DNA from: Sphingomonas sp.
GTDB lineage: Bacteria; Pseudomonadota; Alphaproteobacteria; Sphingomonadales; Sphingomonadaceae
DNA length: 64,000 nucleotides
Direction: 5' to 3'
NCBI GenBank assembly: GCA_045810725.1
Contig: JBJMVK010000132.1
Span: 522-64,521, forward strand
In this document: positions 10,362 through 55,463 of the stretch, one piece after another
How positions within the stretch are numbered: the stretch's first letter is position 1
Layout of the letters: every line of letters begins with the position of its first letter
The notes under the pieces: generated by a model
What the model was told of the DNA's origin: nothing
The model's input: only the letters and a program-made list of their open reading frames with translations
Database searches by the model: none
Translations under genes and position numbers: made by a program

Positions 10362-10375
10362 TGATAGCGCTATCA
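10362..10375. promoter_or_regulatory. LacI-family operator, copy 1
   Basis: Perfect palindrome TGATAGCGCTATCA. Confidence 0.75.
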
Positions 10376-20692: not shown

Positions 20693-20706
20693 AGATAGCG
20701 CTACCA
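20693..20706. promoter_or_regulatory. LacI-family operator, copy 3
   Basis: AGATAGCGCTACCA upstream of GH5. Confidence 0.75.
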
Positions 20707-20934
20707 ACGAGCGGCGAAACGTCGGCAAGTCGACAGCGCAGGGGGGCTGTTGCCGTTGAGCAACGGCGGCAGCCGAATTCGGTCGCCTTTCATGCGCGGA
20801 TTGACTGGCGTCAAACTTTGCATACGAATGCATGCCGCTCACGAAAGTGGGCAGGGGAGAGATTTGGAAGCAACGGGCCGGATGGCCGCGGAAGCATAAA
20901 AATATGCAGCGCGGCCAACGTTTCGAAGCTTTTC

Positions 20935-20948
20935 TGGTAGCGCTACCA
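20935..20948. promoter_or_regulatory. LacI-family operator, copy 4
   Basis: Perfect palindrome TGGTAGCGCTACCA upstream of the TonB receptor. Confidence 0.85.
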
Positions 20949-20996
20949 TCCCCTGCGACTCGGGAGCCCTGGTGACGGGAACGAGGGGAGAGAAGT

Positions 20997-23900
20997 ATGT
21001 TCGGATGCTCGGCACGGTCTGCGCGTATCTTGCGCTGTGGCGCATCGACGATGGTTTTGGGTGCAGCGCTTCTGCAATCCAACATGGCAATTGCCCAGAC
21101 GCAGACGGCGCAGCAGGACGTTGCGACACCGCTGAGCGGAAGCACTAGCACCGAAAAAACGTCGCCTCCGAGCGCCCCCGAGAAGAACGCCATCATCGTC
21201 ACGGGGCAACGCAGAGCGCTTCGCACTTCGCAGCAGATCAAGAGGAACGCGGACACGGTCGTTGATTCGATCACCGCGACCGACATCGGTGCGTTCCCCG
21301 ACAAATCCGTCGCCGAAGCGCTGCAGCGCGTTCCGGGCATCACCGTCAACCGGTTCGCCGCTACCAGCGACACGGCCCACTTCTCGGCCGAGCCTTCGGG
21401 CGTCATCATTCGCGGCCTTCCCCAGGTCCGCTCCGAATTCAACGGCCGTGACACTTTCAGCGCCAACAGCAGCCGTGGCCTCAGCTGGACCGATATCACT
21501 CCGGAGCTCCTTGCCGGCGTCGACGTCTACAAGAACCAGACTGCGGACATGATCGAGGGTGGCATTGCCGGTTCCGTCGATCTTCGCACGCGCGTCCCGT
21601 TCGACGCCCCGGGCCAGCTGATCCAAGTCGGAGCCCGCGCGAACTACGGCGATCTCGACAAGAAATGGACGCCGGACCTCAACGGTTTCTATTCGAACCG
21701 CTGGCAGACGGGCGCCGGCGAGTTCGGACTGATGGGCGACCTTGCATATTCGCACGTCAAGACGCGCTCACAGGGCATTCAGTACGGGCGCACGGCCATT
21801 ATCGAACATGGCGCGCCGGACTGGCCCGCGGAGGTATTCTGGCCCGCCTCGATCAACTTCCTGAACAACGAATATGATCGTAAGCGGTACGGCATCTCCG
21901 CGGCGGGACAGTGGAAGAGCAACAGCGGCAAGGTGCTCGCGACGGCTCAATATCTTCGCTCGCTTTACAAGAACAATTGGCGCGAGCGCACGCTGGGCAG
22001 TTTCGGCCTCGGGCCTGACCTCTACAGCCAGGACGTGTTCACGCGCGTCAATAGTGGCTCGCTCCCGGGGCAAATTCCGATCGAGGCGCCCGGAACGCCC
22101 GATTTCGTGTTCGATTCGAACGGCAATTTTGAAGCCGGCACGCCGAACAAGCAGGGCCCCATCTGGTGGGGCGCTCCACCGAACTGGGCCGGTTCCGGCA
22201 GTGCGCCCGGCATCAACGTCGGCTACGGCGTCAATGACCAGGGCCAGCCGATGTTCAATTCGTGCAACCCCGGCAACACCCAGGCGATCGGCTGCGTCAT
22301 CGGCCCGAATGGCCAGGCGAACTACGGAACCGACGTAGGTACTGGAAGCCGCATCAACCAGAACCGCAGCATGACGCAGGATGCTGCGCTCAATGTGAAA
22401 TGGGATCCCACGAACGACCTCCATTTCAATTTCGACGGGCAGTATGTGAAGTCGAAGGTCGACAATTACGACTTGTCGATGGAATTCCACTCCTTCGCCA
22501 ATACGACGCTCGACGCGACCGGCGAGCTTCCGCGAATTTCCTTCAGTCCGCCGACGAACATCAATCAATCGGAAGGCGGGCTTTCGAACCCTGACAATTG
22601 GTACGTGCGCTCGATCTCGGATCACCTCGAGGATAGCAAGGGGCACGAGTGGGCGCTTCGCGCCGACGGCCAGTACGATTTCCATACCGATTGGCTGAGT
22701 TCGCTCAAGTTCGGCGGCCGCTTTGCGGACCGCAAACAGCTGGTGCAGTGGAGCACCTACAACTGGCAGAATATTGCCAATACCTGGACCGACTGCGACC
22801 CTGGCGGAACAGGGACGAACCCGCACCCCTATTTCAACCTCGACAGTCAGCCTGGCGGCACCTGCATTTCCACCGGCGAGACGTTCAAGGGATATCCGAG
22901 CGGCTTCTACGAAGTCGACAACTTCGGTACGCCTTTCTTTGGCGGCAGCATGGGTAAATTCCCGTTCGTGCCGTTCAGTTTCCTGGAGCAGCACAAGGCC
23001 GACCTGTTCAGCTTCGATTTGACGGGCGTTGGCCAGTTCGTGCCGATCTGCCAGCGGAACGGGCAAGTCCCCGGAGTGACTCCGGTGGAAATCGACAATA
23101 GCTGCTTCACGCCGAACGAAATCGCCAACGTCGAAGAGAAGACGAAGGCGGGTTACGCCATGCTCAAGTTCGGCGGCCCCGACGCGATGCTCGGAAGCAT
23201 CAAGGTCAGCGGCAACATCGGCTTGAGATACGTCCAGACGGACGACAGCAGTTCAGGGGCGGTGCGTTACCCGACGATCTCTGGAGACAGGACGCTCTGT
23301 CCGCACGTCGCTGCGGTCCCCGGCGGCATCGTGGGCAATGCTCCGCTTCCGGGCGAACCTGGCTTCAACGATCCCAATCATCCGCGGCCGCCCGGAACGG
23401 CTTATTATCCTGCATATTGTTACCTGAATGCGGGCGACGTGGCATTCGCGAGCGGCGGGGGCACTTTAACCTCGGCGAGTAACAGCTTCCACAATTTCCT
23501 GCCGAGCTTCAACATCAGGTTTGACCTCACGCCCAAATGGCTGGTGCGGTTCGCCGCTTCCAAGGCGATTTCGAGGCCTGACATCGGGTTGCTCAAGAAC
23601 TTCGTCGATATAGGGCTCAGCTTGCCTGCTAGTAACCAGCTCTCGGATCCCCGGTGGACAATCGGGCCTGATGGGCAGCCGACCGGCGTCAATCCCACCT
23701 ATACGGCGCAAGCGTTCAATCCGTACCTGAAGCCGACATCAGCCTGGCAGTACGACCTTTCGATCGAGAACTATTTCGCGAATGTCGGGCAGTTCAGCTT
23801 CGCGATTTTCTACAAGAAGTTCAAAGACTACATCCAGTACGGCGTGTTCAACCAGAACATCGCCAATGGCGACACTACGCGAACCGTTCGGGTCACCGGC

Positions 23901-24644
23901 CCGGCGAATGGCAGCGGCGCGACGATCAAGGGCGCCGAGATCGATTATCAGCGATTCTTCGACTTCCTTCCGGGCGTGCTCAGCGGGCTCGGCATTCAGG
24001 CCAATGCGACTTACGTGAAGAACAGCGGTGTTCCGAACTCGGCGTTGACTCCAGTCGGCGCTACTGGCGAGGTGACCAACCCGGGCAATGCGCACACGGC
24101 GCTCAATCCGGGAACCCTCGAGGGCCTCTCGAAGTGGACCTACAACCTCGTCGGAATGTACGAGAAAGGAAGGGTCTCGGCCCGGGTCGCGTATAACTGG
24201 CGCTCGAAATACCTGGTCACAGTGGTCGACTGCTGCGTCTATCTGCCGGTGTGGCAGAAGGCTTCGGGCTTCCTCGATGCCTCGCTCCGCTACCGGCTGA
24301 ACGACGCAATCGAGTTCAGCATCGAAGGCAGCAACCTGCTCAACACCAAGACGAAGTTGCTGCAGCAGGTGACGGATACGACGAGCCCCGAAGGCAAGAT
24401 CATCCTCACTCCGAACGCCTGGTTCCAGAACGACCGCCGCTTCATTCTGGGCGAGCGCTGGAAGATGGCGGATGCTGCGGCGCCACCCCCGCCGCCTCCA
24501 GTGATGCTGCCTCCGCCGCCACCGGCGACGCAGACTTGCCCGGACGGATCGGTGGTTGACGCAGCGGCGGCGTGCCCCATGCCGCCTCCACCTGCGGCGC
24601 CTCCGCCACCTCCACCGGCAACGGTGCCCGAGCGCGGCTACTAA
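20997..24644 (+). CDS. TonB-dependent receptor (carbohydrate type) with Pro-rich C-terminal extension
   Basis: IIVTGQR TonB-box region, DSITATDIGAFPD..AEALQRVPG plug, NPYLKP, ARVAYNWRS, GSNLLN. Confidence 0.95.
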   Translation: MFGCSARSARILRCGASTMVLGAALLQSNMAIAQTQTAQQDVATPLSGSTSTEKTSPPSAPEKNAIIVTGQRRALRTSQQIKRNADTVVDSITATDIGAFPDKSVAEALQRVPGITVNRFAATSDTAHFSAEPSGVIIRGLPQVRSEFNGRDTFSANSSRGLSWTDITPELLAGVDVYKNQTADMIEGGIAGSVDLRTRVPFDAPGQLIQVGARANYGDLDKKWTPDLNGFYSNRWQTGAGEFGLMGDLAYSHVKTRSQGIQYGRTAIIEHGAPDWPAEVFWPASINFLNNEYDRKRYGISAAGQWKSNSGKVLATAQYLRSLYKNNWRERTLGSFGLGPDLYSQDVFTRVNSGSLPGQIPIEAPGTPDFVFDSNGNFEAGTPNKQGPIWWGAPPNWAGSGSAPGINVGYGVNDQGQPMFNSCNPGNTQAIGCVIGPNGQANYGTDVGTGSRINQNRSMTQDAALNVKWDPTNDLHFNFDGQYVKSKVDNYDLSMEFHSFANTTLDATGELPRISFSPPTNINQSEGGLSNPDNWYVRSISDHLEDSKGHEWALRADGQYDFHTDWLSSLKFGGRFADRKQLVQWSTYNWQNIANTWTDCDPGGTGTNPHPYFNLDSQPGGTCISTGETFKGYPSGFYEVDNFGTPFFGGSMGKFPFVPFSFLEQHKADLFSFDLTGVGQFVPICQRNGQVPGVTPVEIDNSCFTPNEIANVEEKTKAGYAMLKFGGPDAMLGSIKVSGNIGLRYVQTDDSSSGAVRYPTISGDRTLCPHVAAVPGGIVGNAPLPGEPGFNDPNHPRPPGTAYYPAYCYLNAGDVAFASGGGTLTSASNSFHNFLPSFNIRFDLTPKWLVRFAASKAISRPDIGLLKNFVDIGLSLPASNQLSDPRWTIGPDGQPTGVNPTYTAQAFNPYLKPTSAWQYDLSIENYFANVGQFSFAIFYKKFKDYIQYGVFNQNIANGDTTRTVRVTGPANGSGATIKGAEIDYQRFFDFLPGVLSGLGIQANATYVKNSGVPNSALTPVGATGEVTNPGNAHTALNPGTLEGLSKWTYNLVGMYEKGRVSARVAYNWRSKYLVTVVDCCVYLPVWQKASGFLDASLRYRLNDAIEFSIEGSNLLNTKTKLLQQVTDTTSPEGKIILTPNAWFQNDRRFILGERWKMADAAAPPPPPPVMLPPPPPATQTCPDGSVVDAAAACPMPPPPAAPPPPPPATVPERGY

Positions 24645-24690
24645 TCGGAGGCTTCACCAAGCTGCAGCCATTTGCCGGCGTGAACATGAG

Positions 24691-24727
24691 AAAAGGGTGC
24701 CGCTTCGAATGAGGCGGCACCCTCTTT
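24691..24727 (+). terminator. Intrinsic terminator after TonB receptor
   Basis: AGGGTGCCGCTTC-GAAT-GAGGCGGCACCCT then CTTT. Confidence 0.8.
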
Positions 24728-24800
24728 GCTGCGGAAAAGCGCGTGACGCGAGGGGGCGGCTAAAGTAGCTCCCGAAGAGGCGACGCGTGAAAGCAGGCTA

Positions 24801-26339
24801 GTGAATCAACCGCTTGAAATCGTGATTCTCGGGGGCGGCACGGCCGGCTGGATGGCGGCGGCCGGCTTGGTTTCGCTGATCGCGCCGAGCCGCTGCCGAA
24901 TCCGGCTGGTCGAATCAGACGAGATCGGCATAGTCGGAGTCGGCGAAGCCACGCTGCCGCATATCAAGAACTTCAACGATTCCATCGGCATCGACGAAGC
25001 CGAGATGATGCGAGCCACCAAGGCGACCTTCAAGCTTGGCATCGACTTTGTCGACTGGGGTTCGAAGGGGTCGCGCTATATTCACCCGTTCGGGGTGCAC
25101 GGTGGAGCAGAGGCGGGCCTCGGCTTTCACCAGCAATGGCTCCGGTCGGTGTCGGCCGGTCGCAAATGGGGCCTCGAGGAGTTTTCCTTCGCGTGCATGC
25201 TCGCGCGTGAAAATCGCTTCGATTTCCCGCCGCGCGGCAAGACGCTCAACTCGACCTTCGCCTACGCCTATCACTTCGACGCGAGCCTTTATTCGCAATT
25301 TCTGCGCCAGTTCTCCGAGCCGCGGGGAGTCACTCGCATCGAAGGCAAGGTGCGCGATGTCGAGCAGGATCCCGAAACCGGCGACGTCCGCGCGCTGCTA
25401 ATGGAATCGGGCGCGCGGATCGAGGGCGACTTCTTCATCGACTGCTCGGGATTCCGTTCGATCCTGCTCGCTGGCAAGTTCGGCGCCGACTGGGAGGACT
25501 GGTCGAAGTGGCTGCCTTGCGACCGCGCGCTGCCCGTTCCGACGGAGCGCTGCGGAGACCTCACGCCTTACACACGCGTGAGCGCGATGGACGCGGGCTG
25601 GCGCTGGCGCATCCCGCTGCAGCACCGCACCGGCAACGGTTATGTCTTCTCGAGCCGTTTCACGGATGAAGACAAGGCGCGCGAGGAGCTGCTCGCGAGC
25701 CTCGACGAGCCCACGCTCGCCGAACCAAGGCTGCTGAAGTTCCAGGCGGGACGGCGCAAGAAGTCGTGGCAGCGCAATTGCGTTGCGCTCGGGCTTTCGA
25801 GCGGCTTTCTCGAACCGCTCGAGTCGACCAGCATCTATCTCGTCCAGATTGCGATCATGCACCTTCTGCAGCTGCTTCCGACGCCGCGCCACGATCAGCG
25901 GCTAGTCAACGAATTCAACCTGCGGATGGACATTGAATATGAGCGCATCCGCGACTTCCTGATCCTCCACTATCACCTCAATAGCCGGGACGACACGGAG
26001 CTTTGGCGCTACTGCCGCTCGATGGAGGTGCCGGACACGCTCCAGCGCAAGATGGAGCTGTTCCGGCACTCGGCGATCGTGGAGCAATATAGGGACGGCC
26101 TGTTCACGCCGCCGAGCTGGCTGGCCGTGTATCTCGGTCAGGGCCTAACGCCTCAACATTATAATCCGATCGCAGACGGCCCGCCGCTCGAGCGGCTGCT
26201 CGGCGAGCTCGATGAGCTTCATTCGGACATCCGCGACCGGGTCGACGAAATGCCGCAGCATGCGACGTTCCTCGCGCGCTACGCCAATTCGGAGCAGGCA
26301 AGCGAGGCCCTGCTGCACGAAGCCGAAGTCCGGCTGTGA
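24801..26339 (+). CDS. Tryptophan halogenase family flavoprotein (Hal1)
   Basis: GGGTAG, VGVGEAT, TFKLGI (catalytic Lys position), WRWRIP, FLEPLESTS. Confidence 0.93.
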   Translation: MNQPLEIVILGGGTAGWMAAAGLVSLIAPSRCRIRLVESDEIGIVGVGEATLPHIKNFNDSIGIDEAEMMRATKATFKLGIDFVDWGSKGSRYIHPFGVHGGAEAGLGFHQQWLRSVSAGRKWGLEEFSFACMLARENRFDFPPRGKTLNSTFAYAYHFDASLYSQFLRQFSEPRGVTRIEGKVRDVEQDPETGDVRALLMESGARIEGDFFIDCSGFRSILLAGKFGADWEDWSKWLPCDRALPVPTERCGDLTPYTRVSAMDAGWRWRIPLQHRTGNGYVFSSRFTDEDKAREELLASLDEPTLAEPRLLKFQAGRRKKSWQRNCVALGLSSGFLEPLESTSIYLVQIAIMHLLQLLPTPRHDQRLVNEFNLRMDIEYERIRDFLILHYHLNSRDDTELWRYCRSMEVPDTLQRKMELFRHSAIVEQYRDGLFTPPSWLAVYLGQGLTPQHYNPIADGPPLERLLGELDELHSDIRDRVDEMPQHATFLARYANSEQASEALLHEAEVRL

Positions 26340-27838
26340 GCAGACGCGTCGAATCCGTTGCCGTTGTCGGAAGAGACGCGCCGGTGTGGCTTGCCGCCGC
26401 CGCTGTCCAGCGCGCGCTCGGCCGCACCGGCGTTCGAGTCCAGGTCGTCGAGCTGGATTCCCAACTTTCGACGGTAGACGTCTATGCAGCCATTCCCTCG
26501 CTCGCCGCGTTGCACCGACTGCTCGGGCTCGACGAACGCCTCGTGCTCAATGTTTGCGACGGCGTCCCGATGGTCGCGCAGCGGTTCTCCAACTGGGCGA
26601 AAGCTGCGCAGCCGTACTTCGTCGCCTATGACGACGAGCCGCTGCCGGGCGGCGATCTGACGTTCACCCATTATTGGTCCAAGGGCGCGCTCGAGGGTTT
26701 GCGCGCCAGCCTTCAGGATTTCTCGCTCGGCACCGCCTGTGCGCGGCTGAACAAGGTCCCAGTTCCAGGAGCCGAGCCTTCGCCGCTGTCGGCGAGCTAC
26801 GGCTACCACCTGGACGCAGCCCGATATTCTGAATTGGCGAAGCAGCTTGCACTCCGCCTCGGGGTGGAGCCCGGAGTGGGACCACGCAACATCCACGTCG
26901 ATGGCGATCGAATCGAGGCAATCGATCTCGCCGACGGCACGCGCGTTGCTGCCGACCTTTACCTCGACGCTTCTGGGAGCGAGGCGCGGCTGATCGGCCG
27001 ACTAGCCGGCGCGCAGCTTGAATCCTGGGCCGAGTGGCTGCCGTGCGACCGCTTGCTTGCTGCAAGCGGTCCGGAGCTTAAGACGCTGCCCGCGTTCAGC
27101 CAGGTTTCGGCTTTCAATCGCGGCTGGGTCGGCCTTTTCCCGCTGCAAACCCGAACCGGCATCGTCGCCGCTTATCGTTCTAGCGCGATCGGCGATCGCG
27201 AAGCCGCCGAGCTGGCGAGCGTCATTTCGCGCATGCCGATCACCGGCGAAGCGGTGGTGAGCGAGCTTAGCCCAGGCATCCAGTGCAGGCCGTGGATCGG
27301 AAATTGCGTCGCCATCGGCCGGTCGGCGATCGCGGCCGACCCTATCGGGGCGCTTGACCTTCACGTGACGCACGGCTGCATTTCGCACCTGATGTCGCTG
27401 TTTCCGGCCACTGCTGGCGATTTCCCGGAGGCGCAGGCCTACAACCGCTCGGTGCGATCATTCGGCTCCGACCTGCGTGATTTCCAGGCCGCGCATTATC
27501 TGCTCAATCGCCGCTTCGATGATCCGTTCTGGGATGCAATCCGTCAGGTCGAGATGCCGGCAAGCCTCAAGCGCAAGGTCGACATGTTCGACGCGCGCGC
27601 AGCGGTTCCGCTGAACGACGACGAATCGTTCTACGAACAAGGGTGGGCCGACCTGCTGGCTGGGTGCGGAGTTCATCCCAAGGGCTATGATCCGCGCGTG
27701 GATTCGCTCAGCGACGAAGCGCACATTCGCAAGGTCCAGCAGCGTTTGCGCGACGTCGCCGAACTGGCGAAGCGAATGCCGGGAGTTGACCAGTTTCTCG
27801 GCCTCGAGCAGCCGGCAAGTGCAGAGGTGAGCGGATGA
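26336..27838 (+). CDS. Tryptophan halogenase family protein with degenerate motifs (Hal2, pseudo-enzyme)
   Basis: Colinear with neighbours (YGYHLDA, DLYLDASG, WLPCDR, WIGNCVAIG) but lacks GxGxxG, the Lys, WxWxIP and FxEPxxS. Confidence 0.85.
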   Translation: MSRRVESVAVVGRDAPVWLAAAAVQRALGRTGVRVQVVELDSQLSTVDVYAAIPSLAALHRLLGLDERLVLNVCDGVPMVAQRFSNWAKAAQPYFVAYDDEPLPGGDLTFTHYWSKGALEGLRASLQDFSLGTACARLNKVPVPGAEPSPLSASYGYHLDAARYSELAKQLALRLGVEPGVGPRNIHVDGDRIEAIDLADGTRVAADLYLDASGSEARLIGRLAGAQLESWAEWLPCDRLLAASGPELKTLPAFSQVSAFNRGWVGLFPLQTRTGIVAAYRSSAIGDREAAELASVISRMPITGEAVVSELSPGIQCRPWIGNCVAIGRSAIAADPIGALDLHVTHGCISHLMSLFPATAGDFPEAQAYNRSVRSFGSDLRDFQAAHYLLNRRFDDPFWDAIRQVEMPASLKRKVDMFDARAAVPLNDDESFYEQGWADLLAGCGVHPKGYDPRVDSLSDEAHIRKVQQRLRDVAELAKRMPGVDQFLGLEQPASAEVSG

Positions 27839-29361
27839 CGTATCGAGCGCTTCGTGACATCGTGATCGTCGGCGGCGGAACCGCCGGGTGGATGGCGGCG
27901 GCCGCGCTCGCGAAATGCGCAGGCACTCAGCAGCACCGCATTATCTTGATCGAGTCCGAGGAGATTGGGACCGTCGGCGTGGGCGAATCGACGATCCCGC
28001 CGATCCAGACGTTCAACCAGCTGCTCGGGATCGACGAGGACGAGTTCGTCCGCGAGACCAGCGCGACCTTCAAGCTCGGGATCGAGTTCGTCGACTGGAA
28101 GCGGCTGGGGCACAGCTATTTCCACAATTTCGGACTGCTCGGCGCGGACCTCAAGACAGGCGTTTCGTTCATCCATTACTGGCTGCGCTGGGCGCAGTCC
28201 GGCGGCGATCCGGACCAGTTGCGGTTCAGTTCCGAGGCGCAGGCGGCCCGCCTCGGCAAGTTCGGAAGGGTTCCGCCGAGCCAGGGCGGCGCGCAGCCGA
28301 ACATCAATTACGCCTTCCAGTTCGACGCCTCGACCTACGCCGCCTACCTGCGCCGCTATTCCGAACGGCGCGGAGTTGTTCGGAAGGAGGGAAAGGTCGT
28401 TAATGTCCGGCAAAACGGGCAGACCGGCTACATCGAGGCCGTCGAGATGCAGGACGGGTCGACGGTCCGCGGCGATTTCTTCATCGACTGTTCGGGTTTC
28501 CGAGGTTTGATCATTGAGCAGGTCTATGAGGCCGGGTTCGAGGACTGGAGCCATTGGCTGCCCAATGATCGCGCGGCGGCGGTCCCGGCGCAGCGGATGG
28601 CGGAGCCGTCCCCCTTCACGCTCGCGCGCGCACGCGAAGCCGGCTGGCAGTGGCGCATTCCGCTTCAGCACCGCACCGGGAACGGCTACGTCTTCTGCAG
28701 CAGCTACATTTCGGACGACGAGGTCGCTTCCACGCTCGTGAAGTCTCTCGAGGGCACCGCATTGGCCGACCCGAAATTCCTTCGCTTCAAGGCCGGCAGG
28801 CGCAAAGCCTCGTGGGTGAAGAACTGCCTCGCGCTGGGACTCTCAAGCGGCTTTCTCGAGCCGCTTGAATCGACCAGCATCCATCTTATCCAGGCGGGGA
28901 TCACGAAGTTCCTGGACTTCTTTCCCGAGCGCGAGCCGGATCCGATCCTGATCGACCGCTACAATGAGGAAATGAGCTTCCAATACGAGACGATCCGCGA
29001 TTTCATCATCGCCCACTACAAGGTGACCGAGCGGGAGGACACCGAGTTCTGGCGCTACTGCAAGCACATGAGCATTCCCGACACGCTTGCCGAAAAGATC
29101 GAGCTGTTCATGTCGCGGGGAGAGGTGAAACCACGCTGGGCGGACATCTTCACGGAAGTGAGCTGGTTTGCGGTCCTCTATGGCCAGGGACTGGTTCCCA
29201 CCGGCCATCATCCGGTCGCGGATGCAATGTCCGAGGACGATCTCGAACTCACGCTTTCGAGGATCCGCAACGTCATCAGGCAGCGCGTTGAGGGACTGCC
29301 CTCGCACGGCGATTACATCCGCAGCTGCTGCACAGCCGAGCAGGCGACGAGTGCGGCTTGA
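27835..29361 (+). CDS. Tryptophan halogenase family flavoprotein (Hal3)
   Basis: GGGTAG, TFKLGIEF, WQWRIP, FLEPLESTS. Confidence 0.93.
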   Translation: MTYRALRDIVIVGGGTAGWMAAAALAKCAGTQQHRIILIESEEIGTVGVGESTIPPIQTFNQLLGIDEDEFVRETSATFKLGIEFVDWKRLGHSYFHNFGLLGADLKTGVSFIHYWLRWAQSGGDPDQLRFSSEAQAARLGKFGRVPPSQGGAQPNINYAFQFDASTYAAYLRRYSERRGVVRKEGKVVNVRQNGQTGYIEAVEMQDGSTVRGDFFIDCSGFRGLIIEQVYEAGFEDWSHWLPNDRAAAVPAQRMAEPSPFTLARAREAGWQWRIPLQHRTGNGYVFCSSYISDDEVASTLVKSLEGTALADPKFLRFKAGRRKASWVKNCLALGLSSGFLEPLESTSIHLIQAGITKFLDFFPEREPDPILIDRYNEEMSFQYETIRDFIIAHYKVTEREDTEFWRYCKHMSIPDTLAEKIELFMSRGEVKPRWADIFTEVSWFAVLYGQGLVPTGHHPVADAMSEDDLELTLSRIRNVIRQRVEGLPSHGDYIRSCCTAEQATSAA

Positions 29362-30236
29362 ACTACGCTGGAATTGAGCTTGGCGGCACCAAGTGCGTCG
29401 CGATCCTGGCGCGCGGACCTGACGACATTATCGCAAGGGAGACCGCGCCGACGACAGCTCCGGAAGCAACACTGGACGCGCTCGAGCGGATTCTTGTGCG
29501 CTGGCGGGAACAGCATGGGATAGATTCGCTGGGAATCGCCAGTTTCGGTCCGGTTGGTCTCCATTCGGACTCGCCGACCTGGGGCCATGTGCTCACGACG
29601 ACCAAACCGGGCTGGAGCGGGACCGACGTTGCGCCGCGGTTCGCCGAGCGCCTTGGCGTTCCCGTCGGTTTCGAAACCGACGTCAACGGCGCCGCTCTCG
29701 CGGAAATGCGGTGGGGCGCCGGCCAGGGCATGCGCGATTTCGCCTACATCACGGTTGGCACCGGCGTTGGCGTCGGTCTCGTCGTCAATGGCCATCCGAC
29801 CCGCGGCTTCCTCCATTCGGAACTCGGCCACGTGCGGGTCGCCGAGCGCGCCGGCGAGGAGTGGGACGGCGTATGTCCATTTCACGGATCATGCGTGGAA
29901 GGACTGGCATCGGGGCCTGCGATCAAGGCGCGGATCGCACCGCGGGACGTGGATCAAATCGGGCCCGACGATCTCGTGTGGGATGCCGTCGCCTGGGCAA
30001 TTGCCCAGCTTTGCCATGTCATTGTCTGCGCTGCGGCGCCCGGAGCCATTGCGATCGGCGGCGGAGTGATGGAACGGCAGCCGCACCTGCTTCGCCGGAT
30101 CGACGCGATGCTGAGGCAATCGCTGGGCGAGTATATGCGGCTGCCGCTTCAAAGCGGCTATGTTCGAGCACCCGCGCTCGGCAGCGACGCCGGGCCGCTC
30201 GGCGCCATCGCCCTCGCGATGACGGCTAGGCGGTAG
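29358..30236 (+). CDS. ROK family sugar kinase (fructokinase/mannokinase-like)
   Basis: GIELGGTK, TDVNGAALAE, VGTGVGVG, ELGH...CPFHGSCVEGLASG. Confidence 0.92.
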   Translation: MNYAGIELGGTKCVAILARGPDDIIARETAPTTAPEATLDALERILVRWREQHGIDSLGIASFGPVGLHSDSPTWGHVLTTTKPGWSGTDVAPRFAERLGVPVGFETDVNGAALAEMRWGAGQGMRDFAYITVGTGVGVGLVVNGHPTRGFLHSELGHVRVAERAGEEWDGVCPFHGSCVEGLASGPAIKARIAPRDVDQIGPDDLVWDAVAWAIAQLCHVIVCAAAPGAIAIGGGVMERQPHLLRRIDAMLRQSLGEYMRLPLQSGYVRAPALGSDAGPLGAIALAMTARR

Positions 30237-30999
30237 CGCCAATCAGGAGCAGCGCTCCCGCAGCGTCGATGCGCTCTCCCGGTCCGACGAGGAGGCAATC
30301 GCCGGGACGAGCGCGATCATTTCCAGAACGGATCTCGCCGTGCAGGGGGATCACCCAGCGCTCGCGATCGGTGAACGTGTCTTCATGCGTCTGGGCCAGG
30401 GTGAAGGGTGGTCCATCGACCAGCAGCATCTCGCCCCCGGGGGAGAGATGCTGCGCCAGCGAATGCGGATAGGGTTCAGGTCGAGCCACGGCAATTCCAT
30501 CGTCGAGATGAAGTTCGCGGGGACTGCCGTAATCGTAAAGGCGGTACGTCACGTCCGAGTTCTGCTGGAATTCGATAAGGGAGATTCCGCCGCCGATCGC
30601 GTGGATCGTTCGGGGCGGCACTAGGAAGAAATCGGCCGCTCTGACCACTCGCCAATCCATCAGCTCCTCGATCGAGCCGTCGAGCGCAGCGGCGCGCAGC
30701 CGCTCGCTCTCGACCTGTTCCTTCAACCCTAGGCCCAGCATCGAGCCCGGCTCGGCATCGAGGATGTACCAGCATTCGCTCTTGCCGCGCGAGAGGTCGC
30801 GCTCTTGCGCCTGCGCGTCGTCGGGGTGCACCTGGATGGAAAGCCGCTCGCTCGTGAAGAGATATTTGACGAGTAGCGGCTTGTCGCCCGCGCCGGTGAA
30901 CCAGACCTCCCCGATCCGCTTGCCGCGCGGTGCATCGAACATCTCGGGAAGCTCGGTTCGTCCCCACGGTTTTTCGACATAGCGGCGCTCGAGCTTCAC
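30226..30999 (-). CDS. manA: Mannose-6-phosphate isomerase class I
   Basis: EKPWG, GEVW, LSIQVHPDD, KSECWY, HAIG, EFQQNSDVTYRLYDY. Confidence 0.88.
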   Translation of the reverse strand: MKLERRYVEKPWGRTELPEMFDAPRGKRIGEVWFTGAGDKPLLVKYLFTSERLSIQVHPDDAQAQERDLSRGKSECWYILDAEPGSMLGLGLKEQVESERLRAAALDGSIEELMDWRVVRAADFFLVPPRTIHAIGGGISLIEFQQNSDVTYRLYDYGSPRELHLDDGIAVARPEPYPHSLAQHLSPGGEMLLVDGPPFTLAQTHEDTFTDRERWVIPLHGEIRSGNDRARPGDCLLVGPGERIDAAGALLLIGATA

Positions 31000-31742
31000 G
31001 TAAGGATCCGCTTCAGCACCGGCTCTATGACCGTCGCCATCACGTCGTATCCGGCTTCGGTCGGGTGAACTCCATCATAAGCGAGGCCAGGCTTCATCGC
31101 TCCGCTGCCATCGTCCAGTACCGGATGATAATCGACCCACGTCGCGCCGGTTACATGCGCAAGCTGCATCAGGCGGCGGTTGAGCTCGGCGATCGAGTTG
31201 CGCGTCTCGACCTTCGGCGCCCACGGGAAGCTCCCTGCAGGTGGAACCGATGCGATCATTGCCTCGATCCCGTGCCGCTGCGCAATATCGGTCATCGCCC
31301 GGATATTGTCCTCACTCATCTGCGGCGTCATCGGCCCGGTGTTTCCGGCAATGTCGTTGGTGCCGCCCATGATGTGCACCGCGCGCGGCTTGAGCGCGAC
31401 CACGTCGCTCATCATTCGAAGCACCATCTGGGAGGTAGTCTGGCCGCCGATTCCGCGGTCGATCCTGCCGGCTGTGAAGAAAGCGGGCCGCTTGTCGAAC
31501 CAGCCTTCACTGATTGAATCGCCCATGAAGACCACGTCCACCTTGGCCGTCGATGCGAGGAGCGCCCGGTTTTCATCGGCGTAATAGCCGGTCATCCCAA
31601 AATCGCGGCCGAACCAGCCATGGAACCAGCTGTTCCAGTCCGTTCCCGGCGGAATCTTCTGCTTCGGCCACGCAGCGGTCGGCACAAGCAGTGCGGGACT
31701 GGCCAGTGCGGCTCGGATCAGATGGCGGCGGTCCAGCCTCAT
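30996..31742 (-). CDS. SGNH/GDSL esterase, Tat-exported (putative acetylesterase)
   Basis: MRLDRRHLI; GDSI, RGIGGQT, GTND, DGVHP. Confidence 0.9.
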   Translation of the reverse strand: MRLDRRHLIRAALASPALLVPTAAWPKQKIPPGTDWNSWFHGWFGRDFGMTGYYADENRALLASTAKVDVVFMGDSISEGWFDKRPAFFTAGRIDRGIGGQTTSQMVLRMMSDVVALKPRAVHIMGGTNDIAGNTGPMTPQMSEDNIRAMTDIAQRHGIEAMIASVPPAGSFPWAPKVETRNSIAELNRRLMQLAHVTGATWVDYHPVLDDGSGAMKPGLAYDGVHPTEAGYDVMATVIEPVLKRILT

Positions 31743-33202
31743 AGCCGGTCCTCCAACGAGCAAAGTTGCGGTCGAAGCGGGCCTTCGACACTGACTCCCT
31801 TCGAATCGAAGAGCACGTGCTCTTGGCTCTCTGCGGTGAATCTGGGCCATTGCGGGACTCCAGGCCCGTTCGGGTCGCCCGTCTTCACGAAATTGATCCA
31901 GTAAGGCTTCATCGACAGCCCCGGTGCGAAGGTGGAATCCGAGAAGGCATAGGGAATTTCCGCCGCATGTGAGGTCTTTCCGCCGTTCGGTGCGGAATCG
32001 AACTCGTAGCGCCACACTGCCGCGCCGAGTTGCGACAAGAGCTGCGCGAGATGCTCCGTCGGACAGCGGAACACGACATCGGTCCCGATCTGCTGATCCA
32101 ACGATCCCAGCCGCGGATCCTCGGGCGGATTCGGCTGGTCGGCATGATAATAAGCACGTGCGGCGGCTTCCTTGGATCCGAACGTCCTGGCGATGATCGA
32201 ATCGCGGCGCGCGCGGTCCGAGCCAAACTCGATCTTGTTGGTGCCGGCGATCACCGGCCGTGGCGGTGCTTTTTGAAGCAGCGTCCGAGGATCGGTCGGG
32301 AAGACCTTCCCGTCGACGGTCGTGCGCAGCCACATCATGTCGTCCGACTGCATATTGTCGTCGTGAAGCTTGACGTCGACGGCGAGCAACGCCGCCACCG
32401 ACATTTGACGCATTTTCTCGATGCTTCCGCCTGCCTTCAACAGGTCGTCTGCCTGAAGTCCGATGCGCTCGGCATCGGCAAGGCTTCGAAAGGTCATTCC
32501 AAAGCCCGGCGTTCCGCTTTCCATGATCGCTTTTCCAAACAGCCCGTTCGCTTCTGGAGCAGCGAGCAGAAGGCTGACGTCCTGGGCCCCCGCGGACTCC
32601 CCCGCGATCGTGACATTGCCGGGATCGCCACCGAACCTGGCAATATTGTCATGAACCCAACGCAGCGCCGCGATCTGGTCCATGATCCCGTAATTCCCCG
32701 ATCCGCCCTGCTCGGCGCTGAGGGCGCGATGCGACAGAAATCCGAAGATCCCGAGCCGGTAGCGAACCCCGACGATGAGCACCTGGTTTCCGACATCCGA
32801 CAGGATGATGTCGTTGGGGCCCCCGGCGCGATTGCTTCCGCCGTGGATCCAAACCAGCACCGGGAGCCTCCCAGAAAAAGAGGGCGTTCGGACGTCGAGG
32901 GTCAGGCAGTCTTCCTTCCCGATCACATAATCGGAATAATTCCAGCCCTGGTCATTCTGGATGCAGGAGGCGGGCTGTCCCGTCGCATCACGCACTCCCT
33001 TCCATGGGATCACCGCCTGCGGCGGTTTCCAGCGAAGTTCCTCGACGGGGGGAGCGGCGAACGGGATCCCGCGAAAGAGAAAGCCGCCACCGGCCGCAGG
33101 AGCGCCTCGAACCGTCCCGCCCGCGACGGCAATGACCGGCGAAGCGGCGGGCGCGGGCGCTGCGGCAAGGACAAGGGCAAGAACCTCCAACGCTTTCAAC
33201 AA
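31739..33202 (-). CDS. Carboxylesterase type B
   Basis: GIPFAAPP, EDCLTLDV, WIHGG, FGGDPGNVTIAGESAG. Confidence 0.92.
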   Translation of the reverse strand: MLKALEVLALVLAAAPAPAASPVIAVAGGTVRGAPAAGGGFLFRGIPFAAPPVEELRWKPPQAVIPWKGVRDATGQPASCIQNDQGWNYSDYVIGKEDCLTLDVRTPSFSGRLPVLVWIHGGSNRAGGPNDIILSDVGNQVLIVGVRYRLGIFGFLSHRALSAEQGGSGNYGIMDQIAALRWVHDNIARFGGDPGNVTIAGESAGAQDVSLLLAAPEANGLFGKAIMESGTPGFGMTFRSLADAERIGLQADDLLKAGGSIEKMRQMSVAALLAVDVKLHDDNMQSDDMMWLRTTVDGKVFPTDPRTLLQKAPPRPVIAGTNKIEFGSDRARRDSIIARTFGSKEAAARAYYHADQPNPPEDPRLGSLDQQIGTDVVFRCPTEHLAQLLSQLGAAVWRYEFDSAPNGGKTSHAAEIPYAFSDSTFAPGLSMKPYWINFVKTGDPNGPGVPQWPRFTAESQEHVLFDSKGVSVEGPLRPQLCSLEDRL

Positions 33203-33245
33203 TTGCGCCTCCCACCTTCCCCGCCAGCTTGCGGCCCTTGATGAA

Positions 33246-33259
33246 GGTTAGCGCTAACC
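33246..33259. promoter_or_regulatory. LacI-family operator, copy 5
   Basis: Perfect palindrome (A)GGTTAGCGCTAACC(T) between divergent esterase and MFS genes. Confidence 0.85.
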
Positions 33260-33320
33260 TCATTGCTTGTGCGACCGATTTTTCGCTGCCAGTCTGCGGC
33301 CATATTCGAAAGGATGCGGA

Positions 33321-34613
33321 GTGCAGCAACAGCGCCAATCGGCCGGGGTGACCGGCGCCTATGTGATCGTCACCTGCCTGTTTTTCGCGTGGGGTTTCAT
33401 CACCTCGCTCGTCGATCCGCTAGTCGCTGCCGTCAAAGGGATTTTCCACCTCTCCGACGTCGAGGCGCAGCTGTCCGCCTTCGCCTTTTTCATCGCTTAT
33501 GGAGTGATGAGCCTTCCCGGCGCCGTGATCGTGGCGAAGCTTAAATCGGTGCCCAGCGTGCTCATCTCGCTTGGCCTGATGGTGGCGGGCTGCCTCATCA
33601 TGCTGCTCGCGGCGAACATGGCGGTTTATCCGGTCGTGCTGCTCGGCCTGTTCGTCCTGGCGAGCGGGATCACGGTGCTGCAAGTCGCCGCCAATCCGCT
33701 TTCTGCTGCGCTCGGCACTCCCGAACGGAGCCACTTCCGCCTCACCTTCAGCCAGGCCTTCAACAGCCTCGGCACCTTCATCGGTCCTTATCTCGGCGCG
33801 TCCTTGTTCCTGAAGGGCGTCGAGGTGAAGGAAGGCACGGTCGTCACGCCCGCCGTCCGCGCTGCCTCGCTCCATGGCATCGACCGTGCATTCTTCTGGA
33901 TCGCCGGTCTCATCATCCTCATCGGCGTCCTCATCTACGCCGGCCGCAAAATGATCGCTGCCGCTGCCCCGCCGCCTCCGCACGAGACCGCGGACATGGG
34001 CGTCGGCCGCACGATCCGCGAGGCGATTTCTTCGCCCTGGGCGCTGTTCGGCGGTCTCGCCATCTTCCTTTACGTCGGGGCGGAGGTGTCGATCGGAACG
34101 CAGATGGCGCTGTTCCTCAACAGTGCCGACGTGTGGAACGTCGCGCTCGAGCGCGCAGGCAAGTTCGTCAGCCTCTATTGGGGCGGAGCGATGGTCGGCC
34201 GGCTGGTCGGCTCCGCGCTGCTTACCAGGGTTCCGGCACCGCGCCTGCTTGCAGTCTTCACCGGCGCGGCATGCCTCCTGTGCCTGTTCGTCTTCGCGGT
34301 CGGCGGCGTGCCCGGCGGCTATGCGGCGCTGTCGATCGGGCTATTCAACTCGATCATGTTCCCGGTCATCTTTACGATCACCCTCGAACGGTCGACCGCG
34401 TCGGAAGAGGCGACATCGGGATTCCTTTGTTTCTCGATCGTGGGCGGCGCGATTCTTCCGCTCATCGTCGGCCTGGTCTCGCAGCGCAGCAATTACGTGA
34501 CCGCGTTCATTGTGCCCGCGCTTTGCTATGCGGTGCTGCTCATGTTCTCGCTGGCGTCCAGCCGGGCGCGAACCCACCTCCGCGACGAGCCGGCCGCCGC
34601 GACGATCCACTAA
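33321..34613 (+). CDS. Sugar MFS permease, FucP/GluP family
   Basis: FFAWGF, LQVAANP, QAFNSLGT, FLYVGAEV, NSIMFP; GTG start. Confidence 0.92.
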   Translation: MQQQRQSAGVTGAYVIVTCLFFAWGFITSLVDPLVAAVKGIFHLSDVEAQLSAFAFFIAYGVMSLPGAVIVAKLKSVPSVLISLGLMVAGCLIMLLAANMAVYPVVLLGLFVLASGITVLQVAANPLSAALGTPERSHFRLTFSQAFNSLGTFIGPYLGASLFLKGVEVKEGTVVTPAVRAASLHGIDRAFFWIAGLIILIGVLIYAGRKMIAAAAPPPPHETADMGVGRTIREAISSPWALFGGLAIFLYVGAEVSIGTQMALFLNSADVWNVALERAGKFVSLYWGGAMVGRLVGSALLTRVPAPRLLAVFTGAACLLCLFVFAVGGVPGGYAALSIGLFNSIMFPVIFTITLERSTASEEATSGFLCFSIVGGAILPLIVGLVSQRSNYVTAFIVPALCYAVLLMFSLASSRARTHLRDEPAAATIH

Positions 34614-36115
34614 ACCGAAGCGACACGCCGTTCGATGAACTCGCTCGCCAGAGGCAGCCGCTCTGCGGCCGTTTCGTAAGCGCGCCTCAACTCGGCCATG
34701 GCGCGCAGAACGTCGGCGTCGGGCATGGCCGCGGCGAGCGGGTCCGCCTCGCTTGGGAGAATGTCCTGCCCTAGCATCACCGCGATCCAGCTCGGCACGT
34801 CGAACAGCTCCTCATTGTATCGGAACACGCGGCCATGCTGGCGGAAAAGCTCGATCTTGTGCCGAAGCGTGTCGGGGAGCTCCATGTCGCGCATCTGCCT
34901 CCAGAACGGCTCCGGGCGCCGGTTCGCGAAATAGTGGAGGATGATGAAGTCGCGCACCGGCTCGTAGCTGTTCACCATGTCGCGGTTGTATTCGTCGCGC
35001 TCAACCGGATTGATGCCGCGCCCGGGGAAAAGGCTCAGAAGCTTCTGAACGCCGTGCTGGATCAGGTGGATGCTGGTCGACTCCAACGGCTCGAGAAAGC
35101 CGGACGAAAGTCCGATCCCGATGACGTTTGCTTCCCATGCCTTGCTTCTCCGCCCCGCGGTGAAGCGGAGCCGCTTCGGATCCGCGATCGGCTCGGCATC
35201 GAGCGTTTCGACAAGGATACGCTCCGCCTCGTCATCCTCCATGAACGCGCTCGAATAGACGTGGCCGTTGCCCGTCCGGTGCTGAAGCGGGATGCGCCAT
35301 TGCCACCCCGCCGAATGCGCCGTCGAGCGGGTGTAGGGGAGCAGCGGCTCCGAGCGCGCCGAGGGAAGCGCGATTGCGCGGTCGCAGGGTAGCCAGTGCG
35401 ACCAGTCTTCGAAGCCGACGCCCAGCTGCTGGCCGAGAAGGAGGCTTCTAAAGCCGGAGCAGTCAATGAAGAGGTCGCCGCGGACCCGTCGATCGTCGTC
35501 CAGCGCTACGGCAGTGACGAAGCCGCTCTCCCCGTCTTGCTCGACTCCGACGATCTTGCCTTCGATCCGCTCGGCGCCGTGCGCCGTGGCATATCTGCGC
35601 AGAAACTGGCCGTAAGCGGCGGCATCGAAATGGAAGGCGTAGGCAATCTGCGAAAGCACATCGGCTGGCTGCGGGGAGGGGTGGCCGAACCGGTGCAGCG
35701 CGGCCGCAACCGCGGACATCGAATAGCCGGCAAGCGGCCCGACCGAGGGATTGCCGCGATGCCTCAGCCAGAGCTGGTGAAGCGAAAGCCCGTTGAGTGG
35801 CCGGCCAATCTGCCCGAACTGATGGAAGTAGCGATGGCCCGGTTCGGTCCAGCCCGCGAACTCGATCCCAAGCTTGTAGGTCGCGTGGGTCTCGCGGAGG
35901 AACTCGGCTTCGTCGAGCCCTAGTTGATGATTGAACTCGAGGATCGGGGGGATCGTGCCTTCGCCCACTCCGACAGTGCCGATCGCTTCGGATTCGACGA
36001 GGACGATCCGGCGCCCATCGCCTTGCAGGAATTTCGACAGTGCGGCCGCGGTCATCCACCCCGCCGTGCCGCCGCCAACCACGATGATCCGCCTGATTGC
36101 CCCTGTCTCAGCCAT
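34610..36115 (-). CDS. Tryptophan halogenase family flavoprotein (Hal4)
   Basis: GGGTAG, TYKLGIEF, WQWRIP, FLEPLESTS. Confidence 0.93.
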   Translation of the reverse strand: MAETGAIRRIIVVGGGTAGWMTAAALSKFLQGDGRRIVLVESEAIGTVGVGEGTIPPILEFNHQLGLDEAEFLRETHATYKLGIEFAGWTEPGHRYFHQFGQIGRPLNGLSLHQLWLRHRGNPSVGPLAGYSMSAVAAALHRFGHPSPQPADVLSQIAYAFHFDAAAYGQFLRRYATAHGAERIEGKIVGVEQDGESGFVTAVALDDDRRVRGDLFIDCSGFRSLLLGQQLGVGFEDWSHWLPCDRAIALPSARSEPLLPYTRSTAHSAGWQWRIPLQHRTGNGHVYSSAFMEDDEAERILVETLDAEPIADPKRLRFTAGRRSKAWEANVIGIGLSSGFLEPLESTSIHLIQHGVQKLLSLFPGRGINPVERDEYNRDMVNSYEPVRDFIILHYFANRRPEPFWRQMRDMELPDTLRHKIELFRQHGRVFRYNEELFDVPSWIAVMLGQDILPSEADPLAAAMPDADVLRAMAELRRAYETAAERLPLASEFIERRVASV

Positions 36116-36155: not shown

Positions 36156-36536
36156 CTACGGCTGGCGATACGGAACCCAGTCCCCGAGGTTGCATCCGGG
36201 GCCGGCGATGATCGCGCCCGGCTCGAGCCCGCGGACCCGGTCGCCCCGGCAATATTGGCCGCCGACTCCAGCTTCGACGATGGTCGTGTTCGCCTCGTTG
36301 AGGCCGGGGCAATCGGCGGCCAACCGGTCGATCCAGATCGTGCGGCCGTAACCGTAGGCGACTGTCCGTGGATCGAGGACGTGGAGATTCTCTGCCGGAT
36401 TATTGGAGATGCAGGTTTGCGCAGGGCCCGCTGTGCGCCCCGCAATGACTTGGGCAAATCGAGCCTCCGGCGGCGCGACGGGGCGAGTGCAACTCGCCAG
36501 CAGGCCGGCAGTAGCGATGAGCATCAAACTGCGCAT
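36156..36536 (-). CDS. Cys-containing lipoprotein of unknown function
   Basis: AGGAGG RBS; lipobox LASC; four further Cys. Confidence 0.8.
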   Translation of the reverse strand: MRSLMLIATAGLLASCTRPVAPPEARFAQVIAGRTAGPAQTCISNNPAENLHVLDPRTVAYGYGRTIWIDRLAADCPGLNEANTTIVEAGVGGQYCRGDRVRGLEPGAIIAGPGCNLGDWVPYRQP

Positions 36537-36559: not shown

Positions 36560-37051
36560 GCAGGATCGTTGGTGACCGCTGCCGGGAACCGGACTGCGTC
36601 GAAACAAATCGCCTTGTACCACGTGAGATCGTGCGGCGGCGATGCCGTTCCCGCGCATGGCGGGAGGTGGGACTCGCTCTGGAACTATGCGATCGAACCA
36701 TTGCACCACCATTTCGCTTCGATCGCCTGTCTCCTTCGTAAGCTGAACTTCCATTGCGACGCGCGTCCGGTCCATTGTTCCGCCAATGGGTGGAAAGGTT
36801 CACGCGGGGAAGTCGACCCGGCCATTTTTGACCTGCAGGATCACGTTCTTTGGAAACCCGCCGTCGAGCGTAAGTGAGTGCTGGTCCTGGACGATCGCCC
36901 GTTGCTCGTTCGACCTACCGGCGCGCCACTGCGCCCCGACGAAGCGATAGCGAAGCCACAGGTCGTATCCACCTTCGGCTGACCCATGGGCGGCCTTCAT
37001 CACGAGGAGGAGCGCAGCCGCGAGCCGGCGGAGAGGAACCGTTGACAACAT
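36560..37051 (-). pseudogene. aguA: Heavily deleted alpha-glucuronidase GH67 remnant
   Basis: Three ordered fragments: AEGGYDLWLRY; LDGGFPKNVILQVKNGRVDF/PREPFHPL/MEVQLTKE; EAKWWCNGSIA*FQS...HDLTWYKA, with frameshifts and a stop. Confidence 0.85.
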
Positions 37052-37068: not shown

Positions 37069-37082
37069 TGGTAGCGCTACCA
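37069..37082. promoter_or_regulatory. LacI-family operator, copy 6
   Basis: Perfect palindrome TGGTAGCGCTACCA abutting the GH10 RBS. Confidence 0.85.
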
Positions 37083-44015: not shown

Positions 44016-44094
44016 TATTGACGCACGCTAACGATGTGCCGGATGCTCGCACAATGGCAAAGTTGAGAGGGGCTTGTCCTGTGGACTTCAGTCG

Positions 44095-50752: not shown

Positions 50753-50851
50753 GAAACGAAATCCCCTTTTCGAGTTCAGCGTGTCACGCAAGCATGGACG
50801 GGTCAATCGCGCTGCTGTTGCCTTCGCCGCCTCGTGGGCTAGGCTGCTTCG

Positions 50852-55377: not shown

Positions 55378-55391
55378 TGGTAGCGCTAACG
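55378..55391. promoter_or_regulatory. LacI-family operator, copy 7
   Basis: TGGTAGCGCTAACG between GH3 and the LacI gene. Confidence 0.8.
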
Positions 55392-55463
55392 TAGCTTGCG
55401 CTCAGAGGTCGTCAACGCGCGTCTGATTGCATATCGGTATTGCCTCACCTAGCACTGCCGCCG

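Follow-up and report, generated by a model that had tools for sequence, protein, structure and literature searches.

What do flavin-dependent halogenases do behind a TonB-dependent receptor in a locus for sugar use? The question is raised by a 64-kb stretch of DNA (contig C132:522-64521, hereafter the window) from a 2.09-Mb, 77%-complete metagenome-assembled genome of a Sphingomonas species, in which a receptor gene is followed by three halogenase genes, hal1 to hal3, with a fourth, hal4, further on. We show here that this locus is an ordinary, complete four-paralogue member of a widespread cassette that joins TonB-Xanth-Caul receptors with BrvH-type halogenases, together with a Cupin_8 dioxygenase and sometimes with SapC, and we predict from operator sequences that the receptor-halogenase operon, Hal4 and Cupin_8 are wired into a xylose regulon. 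The identity and regulation of the locus in these terms are very likely. On the substrate we offer a leading guess that is tentative, namely the tailoring of aromatic side chains of a co-made, exported protein. When identity, regulation and mechanism are blended into a single figure, our best explanation carries a probability of about 60%. The arrangement as such was already published in 2010; new here are the link to the regulon, the order of the paralogues, a conserved hairpin and a structural model of Hal1 with Hal2.

The receptor (20997-24644, + strand) has a signal peptide, a Plug and a barrel domain and matches the TonB-Xanth-Caul model TIGR01782 with 606 bits (cut-off 310) over model positions 3-867 of 868. 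After a gap of 156 nt it is followed on the same strand by Hal1 (24801-26339), Hal2 (26336-27838), Hal3 (27835-29361) and a fructokinase-like ROK sugar kinase (29358-30236); the junctions Hal1-Hal2, Hal2-Hal3 and Hal3-ROK are the 4-nt overlaps GTGA, ATGA and TTGA. Hal4 (34610-36115) lies on the opposite strand, about 5 kb from the Hal1-Hal3 block. All four proteins match PF04820 end to end (603, 278, 615 and 622 bits for Hal1 to Hal4, cut-off 21 bits; profile positions 1-2 to 454-458). Hal1, Hal3 and Hal4 share GGGTAGW, the lysine of (F/Y)KLGI, GW(R/Q)WRIPLQ and GFLEPLESTS; at these positions Hal2 reads GRDAPVW, PMVAQ, GWVGLFPLQ and IAADPIGAL, and with the loss of all four motifs this full-length paralogue is predicted to be catalytically dead. 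A first-pass annotation, made from the letters of the window, had read a receptor followed by Hal1-Hal2-Hal3-ROK with 4-nt overlaps and three motif-intact copies; Pfam and NCBIfam scans and the junction letters agree with this order, and alignment identifies the intact copies as Hal1, Hal3 and Hal4. The Hal proteins should be cytoplasmic, since their FAD-binding fold begins at residue 6 and they have no signal peptide.

The best solved relatives of the window halogenases are BrvH from Brevundimonas sp. BAL3 (6frl, E 5.8e-149) and Xcc4156 from Xanthomonas campestris B100 (6y1w, E 2.7e-142), with which they have the catalytic motifs and the non-tryptophan site patterns in common. The substrate-site motifs of Hal1, Hal3 and Hal4 are ATLPHI, STIPPI and GTIPPI, and HPFG, HNFG and HQFG, respectively; the patterns A/S-T-x-P-x-I and H-x-F-G are those of the 'group C' non-tryptophan halogenases (table in PMC8269204). 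By motif and by closest structures, Hal1, Hal3 and Hal4 are accordingly classed with the BrvH/Xcc 'group C' type. BrvH and Xcc4156 brominate indoles in vitro. BrvH and the Xanthomonas enzymes reject tryptophan and are poor on indoles; BrvH has an open site, and its authors doubt that indole is the natural substrate. A receptor or glycan context is not discussed in the papers cited here on BrvH and the Xanthomonas halogenases. PrnA, RebH and PyrH belong to the same Pfam family and share the fold, the catalytic lysine and glutamate, WxWxIP and the crystallographic dimer, but they are distant (E ~1e-75 to 1e-85) and their free-tryptophan-binding motifs are not present in the window copies. These enzymes are also encoded with biosynthetic genes and usually with a dedicated reductase, none of which was found in the window. 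Among its open reading frames (ORFs) of at least 220 aa there is no flavin reductase, no nonribosomal peptide synthetase or polyketide synthase and no tryptophan-pathway gene, as the first-pass annotation had stated for the window as a whole. Scaffold genes, a dedicated reductase and an exporter were not found in this set either, and the Hal genes thus stand outside any natural-product cluster. One PF01613 flavin reductase gene is located elsewhere in the genome, on contig C77.

A neighbourhood of this kind has been described before. According to the relevant passage of Iyer et al. (2010), genomes of alpha- and gamma-proteobacteria conserve a group of neighbouring genes that comprises a TonB-class receptor, SapC, a JmjC-type gene and one to three tryptophan halogenases, for which a halogenated siderophore-like product was predicted (PMC2938197). 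The window resembles the neighbourhood in that passage in having the receptor first, multiple halogenase paralogues in which Rossmann fold and lysine are intact, a JmjC-type cupin in the set and a sporadic distribution shaped by gene transfer (PMC2938197). It differs in that the SapC of the genome is on another contig, that the cupin and one halogenase are displaced with a shared operator, and that the context is a regulon of xylose and carbohydrate-active enzymes (CAZymes); a conserved dead copy finds no mention in that passage (PMC2938197). Full-text literature searches linking halogenases with TonB-dependent receptors, polysaccharide utilisation or glycoside hydrolases returned nothing beyond Iyer et al. 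(2010), and in a paper on macroalgal halogen metabolism such genes are merely counted. The proposal of an uncharacterised module made in the first-pass annotation therefore stands as far as a functional module of halogenases and receptor is concerned, but the neighbourhood itself had been in print since 2010.

We compared 80 loci that were chosen solely by similarity to the four window halogenases and that come from alpha-, beta- and gamma-proteobacteria, with hosts among the Caulobacterales, Sphingomonadales, Burkholderiales, Cellvibrionales, Xanthomonadales, Alteromonadales and others. Their layout is a receptor followed by one to five halogenase genes. The receptor adjoins the halogenase block in 53 of the 80 loci and is at most three genes off in 61; no receptor match was obtained in 16 loci, nine of which have the block at the locus edge, and since the receptor profile is subfamily-specific these receptor counts are lower bounds. 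The genome from which the window comes has 12 Plug-domain matches in about 2 Mb, and none of its seven halogenase genes is more than 10 kb from a receptor gene unless it sits at a contig edge. One copy belongs to a LacI / receptor / halogenase / GH13 / GH13 locus (starch or maltodextrin; GH, glycoside hydrolase family), one to a halogenase / GH30 / MFS (major facilitator superfamily) / GH16 ... GH3 / LacI locus (beta-glucan), and one is found beside an Oar-like receptor and GH43. At C121:14577-19373 a halogenase gene is placed upstream of an Oar-like receptor (CarboxypepD_reg + OMP_b-brl_4), hence with another receptor class and in reversed order. The first genes flanking the cassette across genomes encode GH43, GH97, GH9, GH13, GH67, GH31 and GH2 enzymes, sugar transporters, solute-binding proteins and LacI regulators, and two loci contain another type of 2-oxoglutarate (2OG) oxygenase. 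Enrichment beside TonB receptor and CAZyme loci, which had been suggested as a check on the module, is clearly seen in these loci and their flanking genes. The tie to hemicellulose does not survive the comparison: the same pairing occurs in the GH13 and GH30/GH16/GH3 loci of the genome and with diverse hydrolases elsewhere. Given the starch and beta-glucan contexts, the role of the cassette is not specific to hemicellulose, and it follows the receptor class, not one glycan.

The paralogues of the cassette keep a fixed order. In a FastTree phylogeny of 186 halogenase copies, Hal1 falls into a clade of which 41 of 44 members occupy position 1 (support 98), Hal3 into a clade of last-position copies (support 98) and Hal4 into one made up mostly of copies in third place of four (support 76). 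Degenerate copies (n=36) split from the motif-intact ones with support 98, and 30 of them are at position 2, as is Hal2. The halogenases of single receptor-halogenase pairs, including the other three of the genome, form a separate cluster. As judged from this tree, the window has a complete set of four old paralogue groups with fixed positions, and Hal4 is the third member, displaced. The copies of the dead group change more quickly (mean column identity 37% vs 57% in position 1) but are full length across three proteobacterial classes, as is typical of a pseudo-enzyme that has been kept. When Hal1 and Hal2 were modelled as a complex, the score was 0.90, compared to 0.33 for the best of three controls; of 80 solved complexes 58 attain this mark, and of 110 mismatched pairs 2, which are rough counts since own alignments were used. 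Contact agreement between runs is at least 93% and the partner pLDDT at least 91, and the interface is pseudo-symmetric, with residues 26-31, 353-375, 413-432 and 452-462 of each chain. The same dimer geometry is present in all tryptophan-halogenase crystals, including the Xcc4156 homodimer (PMC7336383). Since family homodimers of this geometry are known, the model shows that Hal2 can fit the family dimer, not that it does. On the strength of the model, Hal1 probably works as a heterodimer with the dead Hal2.

Regulation is read from a palindrome, TGGTAGCGCTACCA, which is one base different from the published xyl-box TGGTAGCGCTAACA (PMC10380989). In Xanthomonas and Caulobacter the xyl-box is bound by XylR, which lets go when xylose is present (PMC10380989). 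The window has six sites with at most two mismatches, where 0.08 are expected: 10362, 18060 (before GH27), 20693, 20935, 37069 and 55378 (between GH3 and the LacI gene). Perfect copies are those at 20935-20948, 49 nt upstream of the receptor start codon, and at 37069-37082, between the Hal4 unit with its GH67 remnant (- strand) and GH10-GH43 (+ strand). Two mismatches are found at 10362-10375, upstream of the unit of a 155-aa secreted protein, Cupin_8 and GH29, and at 20693-20706, in the intergenic region that the receptor gene shares with the divergent GH5-like gene. The LacI-family regulator (55440-56555, + strand), presumed to be XylR, has its own xyl-box at 55378-55391. Receptor unit, Hal4 unit and Cupin_8 unit are thus each located behind their own copy, and it is through this common operator that the two displaced genes, Hal4 and Cupin_8, form a single predicted xylose regulon with the receptor-halogenase operon. 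The palindrome also joins xylan, alpha-galactoside, fucoside and receptor units and the LacI gene into one predicted XylR regulon. In the Xanthomonas and Caulobacter regulon the operator likewise precedes xylanase, receptor and regulator genes, whereas the predicted sphingomonad regulon extends to alpha-galactosidase and fucosidase units. The LacI-regulon paper of Ravcheev (2014) has no mention of XylR or halogenases.

The two displaced members deserve a closer description. The Hal4 unit begins beside the operator at 37069 with the remnant of a GH67 (alpha-glucuronidase) gene (36560-37051, - strand; N-terminal GYDLWLRY), whose match to the GH67 middle domain is weak (E 1.8e-4, below cut-off), and continues with a 126-aa lipoprotein-like ORF without a family (36156-36536, - strand) upstream of Hal4, an order already seen in the first-pass annotation. 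The alpha-glucuronidase gene has shrunk to a fragment yet still heads the unit that contains Hal4. Cupin_8 (10866-11915, + strand; 222 bits) is a JmjC/FIH-like dioxygenase with a HYD...WWH iron triad and without a signal peptide. Its gene is located about 9 kb upstream of the receptor gene in another unit and is tied to the cassette by the common operator only. Cupin_8 is found in 22 of the 80 related loci and is the usual companion of the cassette, relocated here, and the earlier assignment of the cupin to the module gains support from the operator common to the receptor, Hal4 and Cupin_8 units. Further strong Cupin_8 paralogues are encoded outside the window (C132:71220-72323, C45:27784-28656 and C65:3950-4960), with a weak one on C93. 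The ROK kinase, in contrast to the cupin, is a local passenger outside the conserved cassette; ROK genes occur in 6 of 80 other loci, mostly in convergent orientation.

Between receptor and Hal1 a 13-bp G+C-rich stem-loop (24694-24723, + strand) is followed by CUUUGC, a weak U tract. It had earlier been taken for a terminator; the hairpin is indeed present in the gap, but the U tract is weak and a consensus terminator scan, which overall performed no better than chance, did not call it. The junctions of related loci have a characteristic design: halogenase genes follow each other with a median gap of -4 nt and overlap in 67 of 99 cases, while the median gap between receptor and halogenase is 102 nt. 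Over 33 of these receptor-halogenase junctions, the median energy of the best 50-nt hairpin is -29.3 kcal/mol, vs -17.6 kcal/mol for shuffled sequences (Wilcoxon p 1e-10), and a hairpin of -20 kcal/mol or lower is present at 91% of them. A stable hairpin 3' of the receptor gene is thus a conserved part of the cassette design, and it likely acts as an attenuator or marks the transcript end, so that receptor is made in quantity and enzyme sparingly. In soil RNA libraries (four libraries from three studies), contigs at 95-100% identity cover 20845-24677 and span the receptor gene, and one RNA run holds two perfect pieces inside Hal1 (25794-25969) and Hal3 (28166-28352). These contigs leave most of Hal1-Hal3, ROK and Hal4 uncovered; they are uninformative on expression and cannot rank it, and DNA may contaminate such libraries.

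How might such a system work? Xylose or xylo-oligosaccharides would switch on the receptor, halogenase and Cupin_8 units. The receptor would be made abundantly, and the hairpin would pass little read-through to the enzymes. The cytoplasmic halogenases would take FADH2 from a reductase encoded elsewhere, Hal1 would pair with the dead Hal2, and the enzymes may then tailor aromatic side chains of a co-produced, export-destined protein, perhaps the receptor precursor, to which Cupin_8 could add hydroxylations. A macromolecular substrate fits best with the cytoplasmic location of the proteins, the nature of their companions, the lack of scaffold, carrier and exporter genes in the window, one halogenase set per receptor and the independence from the glycan; the companions, JmjC/FIH-like and 2OG oxygenases, belong to protein- or peptide-modifying families. 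The receptor precursor is the sole universally co-encoded substrate candidate. The more specific version, in which active/dead heterodimers and a JmjC-type hydroxylase would modify tryptophans or other aromatics of the receptor precursor or of another envelope protein before export, is unlikely.

Precedents exist for the chemistry. The halogenase-fold flavoenzyme QhpG hydroxylates protein-bound tryptophan before export; its match to Hal1 is weak (37.6 bits, cut-off 240). MibH, a lantibiotic halogenase, halogenates peptide-bound tryptophan (PMC8269204). Both enzymes are thus examples of the fold acting on tryptophan in a peptide or protein that is later exported. They differ from the present case in that a precursor-peptide gene and a partner of the radical-SAM or protease type are missing from the window locus, and the similarity is distant. 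The receptor itself has W590, W597 and W1068 conserved in 36-38 of 39 receptors of multi-halogenase cassettes, in a rough alignment and at residues that may be purely structural, and we regard these tryptophans as a lead only. Residues 589-597 correspond to about 22761-22787 and residue 1068 to about 24198-24200; the W590 region is absent from most single-pair receptors. Receptors of multi-halogenase cassettes are longer (~1000-1300 aa) and have a terminal strand of the NDRRF...R..F type, whereas the receptors of single pairs are shorter and differ at their end. The window receptor carries after its final barrel strand (...RRFILGERWKM) an unusual proline-rich tail of 58 aa with two cysteines (24468-24644; ATQTCPDGS...ACP...PERGY). 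Such a 58-aa Pro/Cys tail is also present on the receptor of the starch locus of the same genome and on that of one further locus, L009, while the remaining compared receptors end at most two residues from the final barrel strand, nearly always on an aromatic residue. As an anecdote only, one of the colony-morphology mutants of a freshwater Sphingomonas had its transposon insertion in a gene annotated as 'tryptophan halogenase' (PMC11340318).

Several points weigh against this reading and have to be set beside it. Tailoring of a protein is a guess, and for an outer-membrane barrel it would be out of the ordinary to be modified in the cytoplasm, as a Sec substrate, prior to export. The N-terminus of the receptor has no evident recognition leader. 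Long receptors on contigs C79 and C85 of the same genome are encoded without a halogenase, hence receptors of such size need none in general. The 80 related loci share no small protein or peptide gene that goes with the cassette. A co-encoded small substrate was considered and rejected, as the four candidates, the 155-aa secreted protein, the 126-aa lipoprotein, the orphan 444-aa protein and the PMI-like protein, have no homologue in these loci. The Hal1-Hal2 interface is not better conserved than the rest of the proteins, neither in dead copies (0.51 vs 0.50 elsewhere, p 0.41) nor in position-1 copies (0.50 vs 0.70 elsewhere); with no enrichment, interface conservation was dropped as independent support for the model. 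That the regulator at 55440 is XylR, and that xylose induces the units, is a prediction from operator similarity. Finally, SapC (PF07277) is not encoded in the window, and its only match in the genome is on contig C40; a single-sequence search with this copy found SapC in 2 of the 80 loci, surely an undercount. The published neighbourhood, in the words of its description, 'might additionally encode' SapC (PMC2938197), and since SapC is optional there, its absence here does not exclude membership.

Among the alternatives to protein tailoring, halogenation of a small molecule fares best, although we still consider it unlikely. A free aromatic compound, be it indole, a phenolic aglycone or a ferulate-type residue imported with plant glycans or set free from them, would be brominated or chlorinated in the cytoplasm of the feeding cell for detoxification, as a signal or as an antimicrobial. 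BrvH and three Xanthomonas homologues do halogenate indole derivatives in vitro, with bromide preferred (PMC8269204, PMC7336383), and the GDSL esterase, the carboxylesterase and the CE4 deacetylase of the locus could release glycan decorations. However, the in vitro activity on indole is very low, and one common metabolite poorly explains seven paralogues that are each tied to their own receptor. An exporter and further tailoring genes were not found in the window. The cassette also flanks receptors for starch (GH13) and beta-glucan (GH16/GH30), glycans without aromatics; for the same reason the processing of plant aromatics attached to hemicellulose, put forward in the first-pass annotation, is improbable as a general role.

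In a second alternative, halogenation in vitro would be a side reaction, and the proteins would be flavin-dependent oxidoreductases or else partners of the uptake system with a structural or regulatory part. That one paralogue group has been retained despite complete loss of catalysis, as judged by its motifs, would suit such a role. Against it, 141 of the 186 compared copies have the full set of Lys, WxWxIP and Glu motifs, which are specific for the chemistry of halogenation, and the position-1, position-3 and last-position copies of the window are each motif-intact, so that we see only a slim chance for this explanation. The published prediction of a siderophore, according to the passage cited above (PMC2938197), fares worse still. 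The adjacent receptor would import a chelator derived from amino acids and made by the halogenases, Cupin_8 and SapC, and siderophore uptake is the classic task of TonB-dependent receptors. The receptor is however of the TonB-Xanth-Caul type, it is surrounded here and elsewhere by CAZymes, sugar transporters and LacI regulators and stands here under a xylose operator, and no peptide synthetase, chelator-building gene or iron-regulation element was found in the window, which makes a siderophore very improbable. That the halogenase genes merely hitch-hike beside receptor genes can practically be dismissed: the hairpin does separate them from the receptor gene, with which their co-transcription is putative, and co-inherited linked genes also yield conserved gene order, but adjacency in 53 of 80 loci over three proteobacterial classes, a conserved hairpin and displaced members under the same operator speak clearly against it.

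The surroundings of the cassette are in line with its sugar context, and the window as a whole is a sugar-utilisation island with a G+C content of about 63%. Its hydrolases comprise GH29, GH31, GH35/42-like, GH27, a weak GH5-like, GH10, GH43, GH20 and GH3 members; further genes encode a PMI-like cupin, GDSL and carboxyl esterases, an MFS transporter, an aldo-keto reductase, CE4, a sugar transporter and the LacI regulator. The 444-aa ORF divergent from the receptor (19310-20644, - strand) matches GH5 weakly (E 1.1e-3) and is possibly a glycanase of divergent sequence. A block for GlcNAc/chitobiose (41836-52985), with NagA, SIS, a fused phosphotransferase system (PTS) protein EIIA-HPr-EI, EIICB, GH20 and an HGSNAT-like NagX, adjoins the hemicellulose genes. 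The housekeeping dehydratase of the genome is 86-90% identical to those of soil 'Sphingomicrobium' and Sphingomonas genomes, and soil and rhizosphere metagenomes contain up to 64% of the sampled words of the window.

Few 'orphan' halogenases of environmental proteobacteria are as common as those linked to TonB receptors, of which this one genome, 77% complete, has seven; surveys of halogen metabolism routinely mistake them for antibiotic-pathway genes. The question of their role is sharpened by the present locus: the genes belong to a predicted sugar (xylose) regulon, they follow no single glycan, they fall into four ordered paralogue groups and they lie behind a hairpin that likely lowers the enzyme level. 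The value of the locus is the clean link to a regulon combined with the analysis of paralogue order, which together make the substrate question testable. If the receptor is indeed the substrate, this would constitute a new class of outer-membrane protein modification, that of halogenated transporters, by which many proteobacteria from water, soil and plants would tune their capture of sugars.

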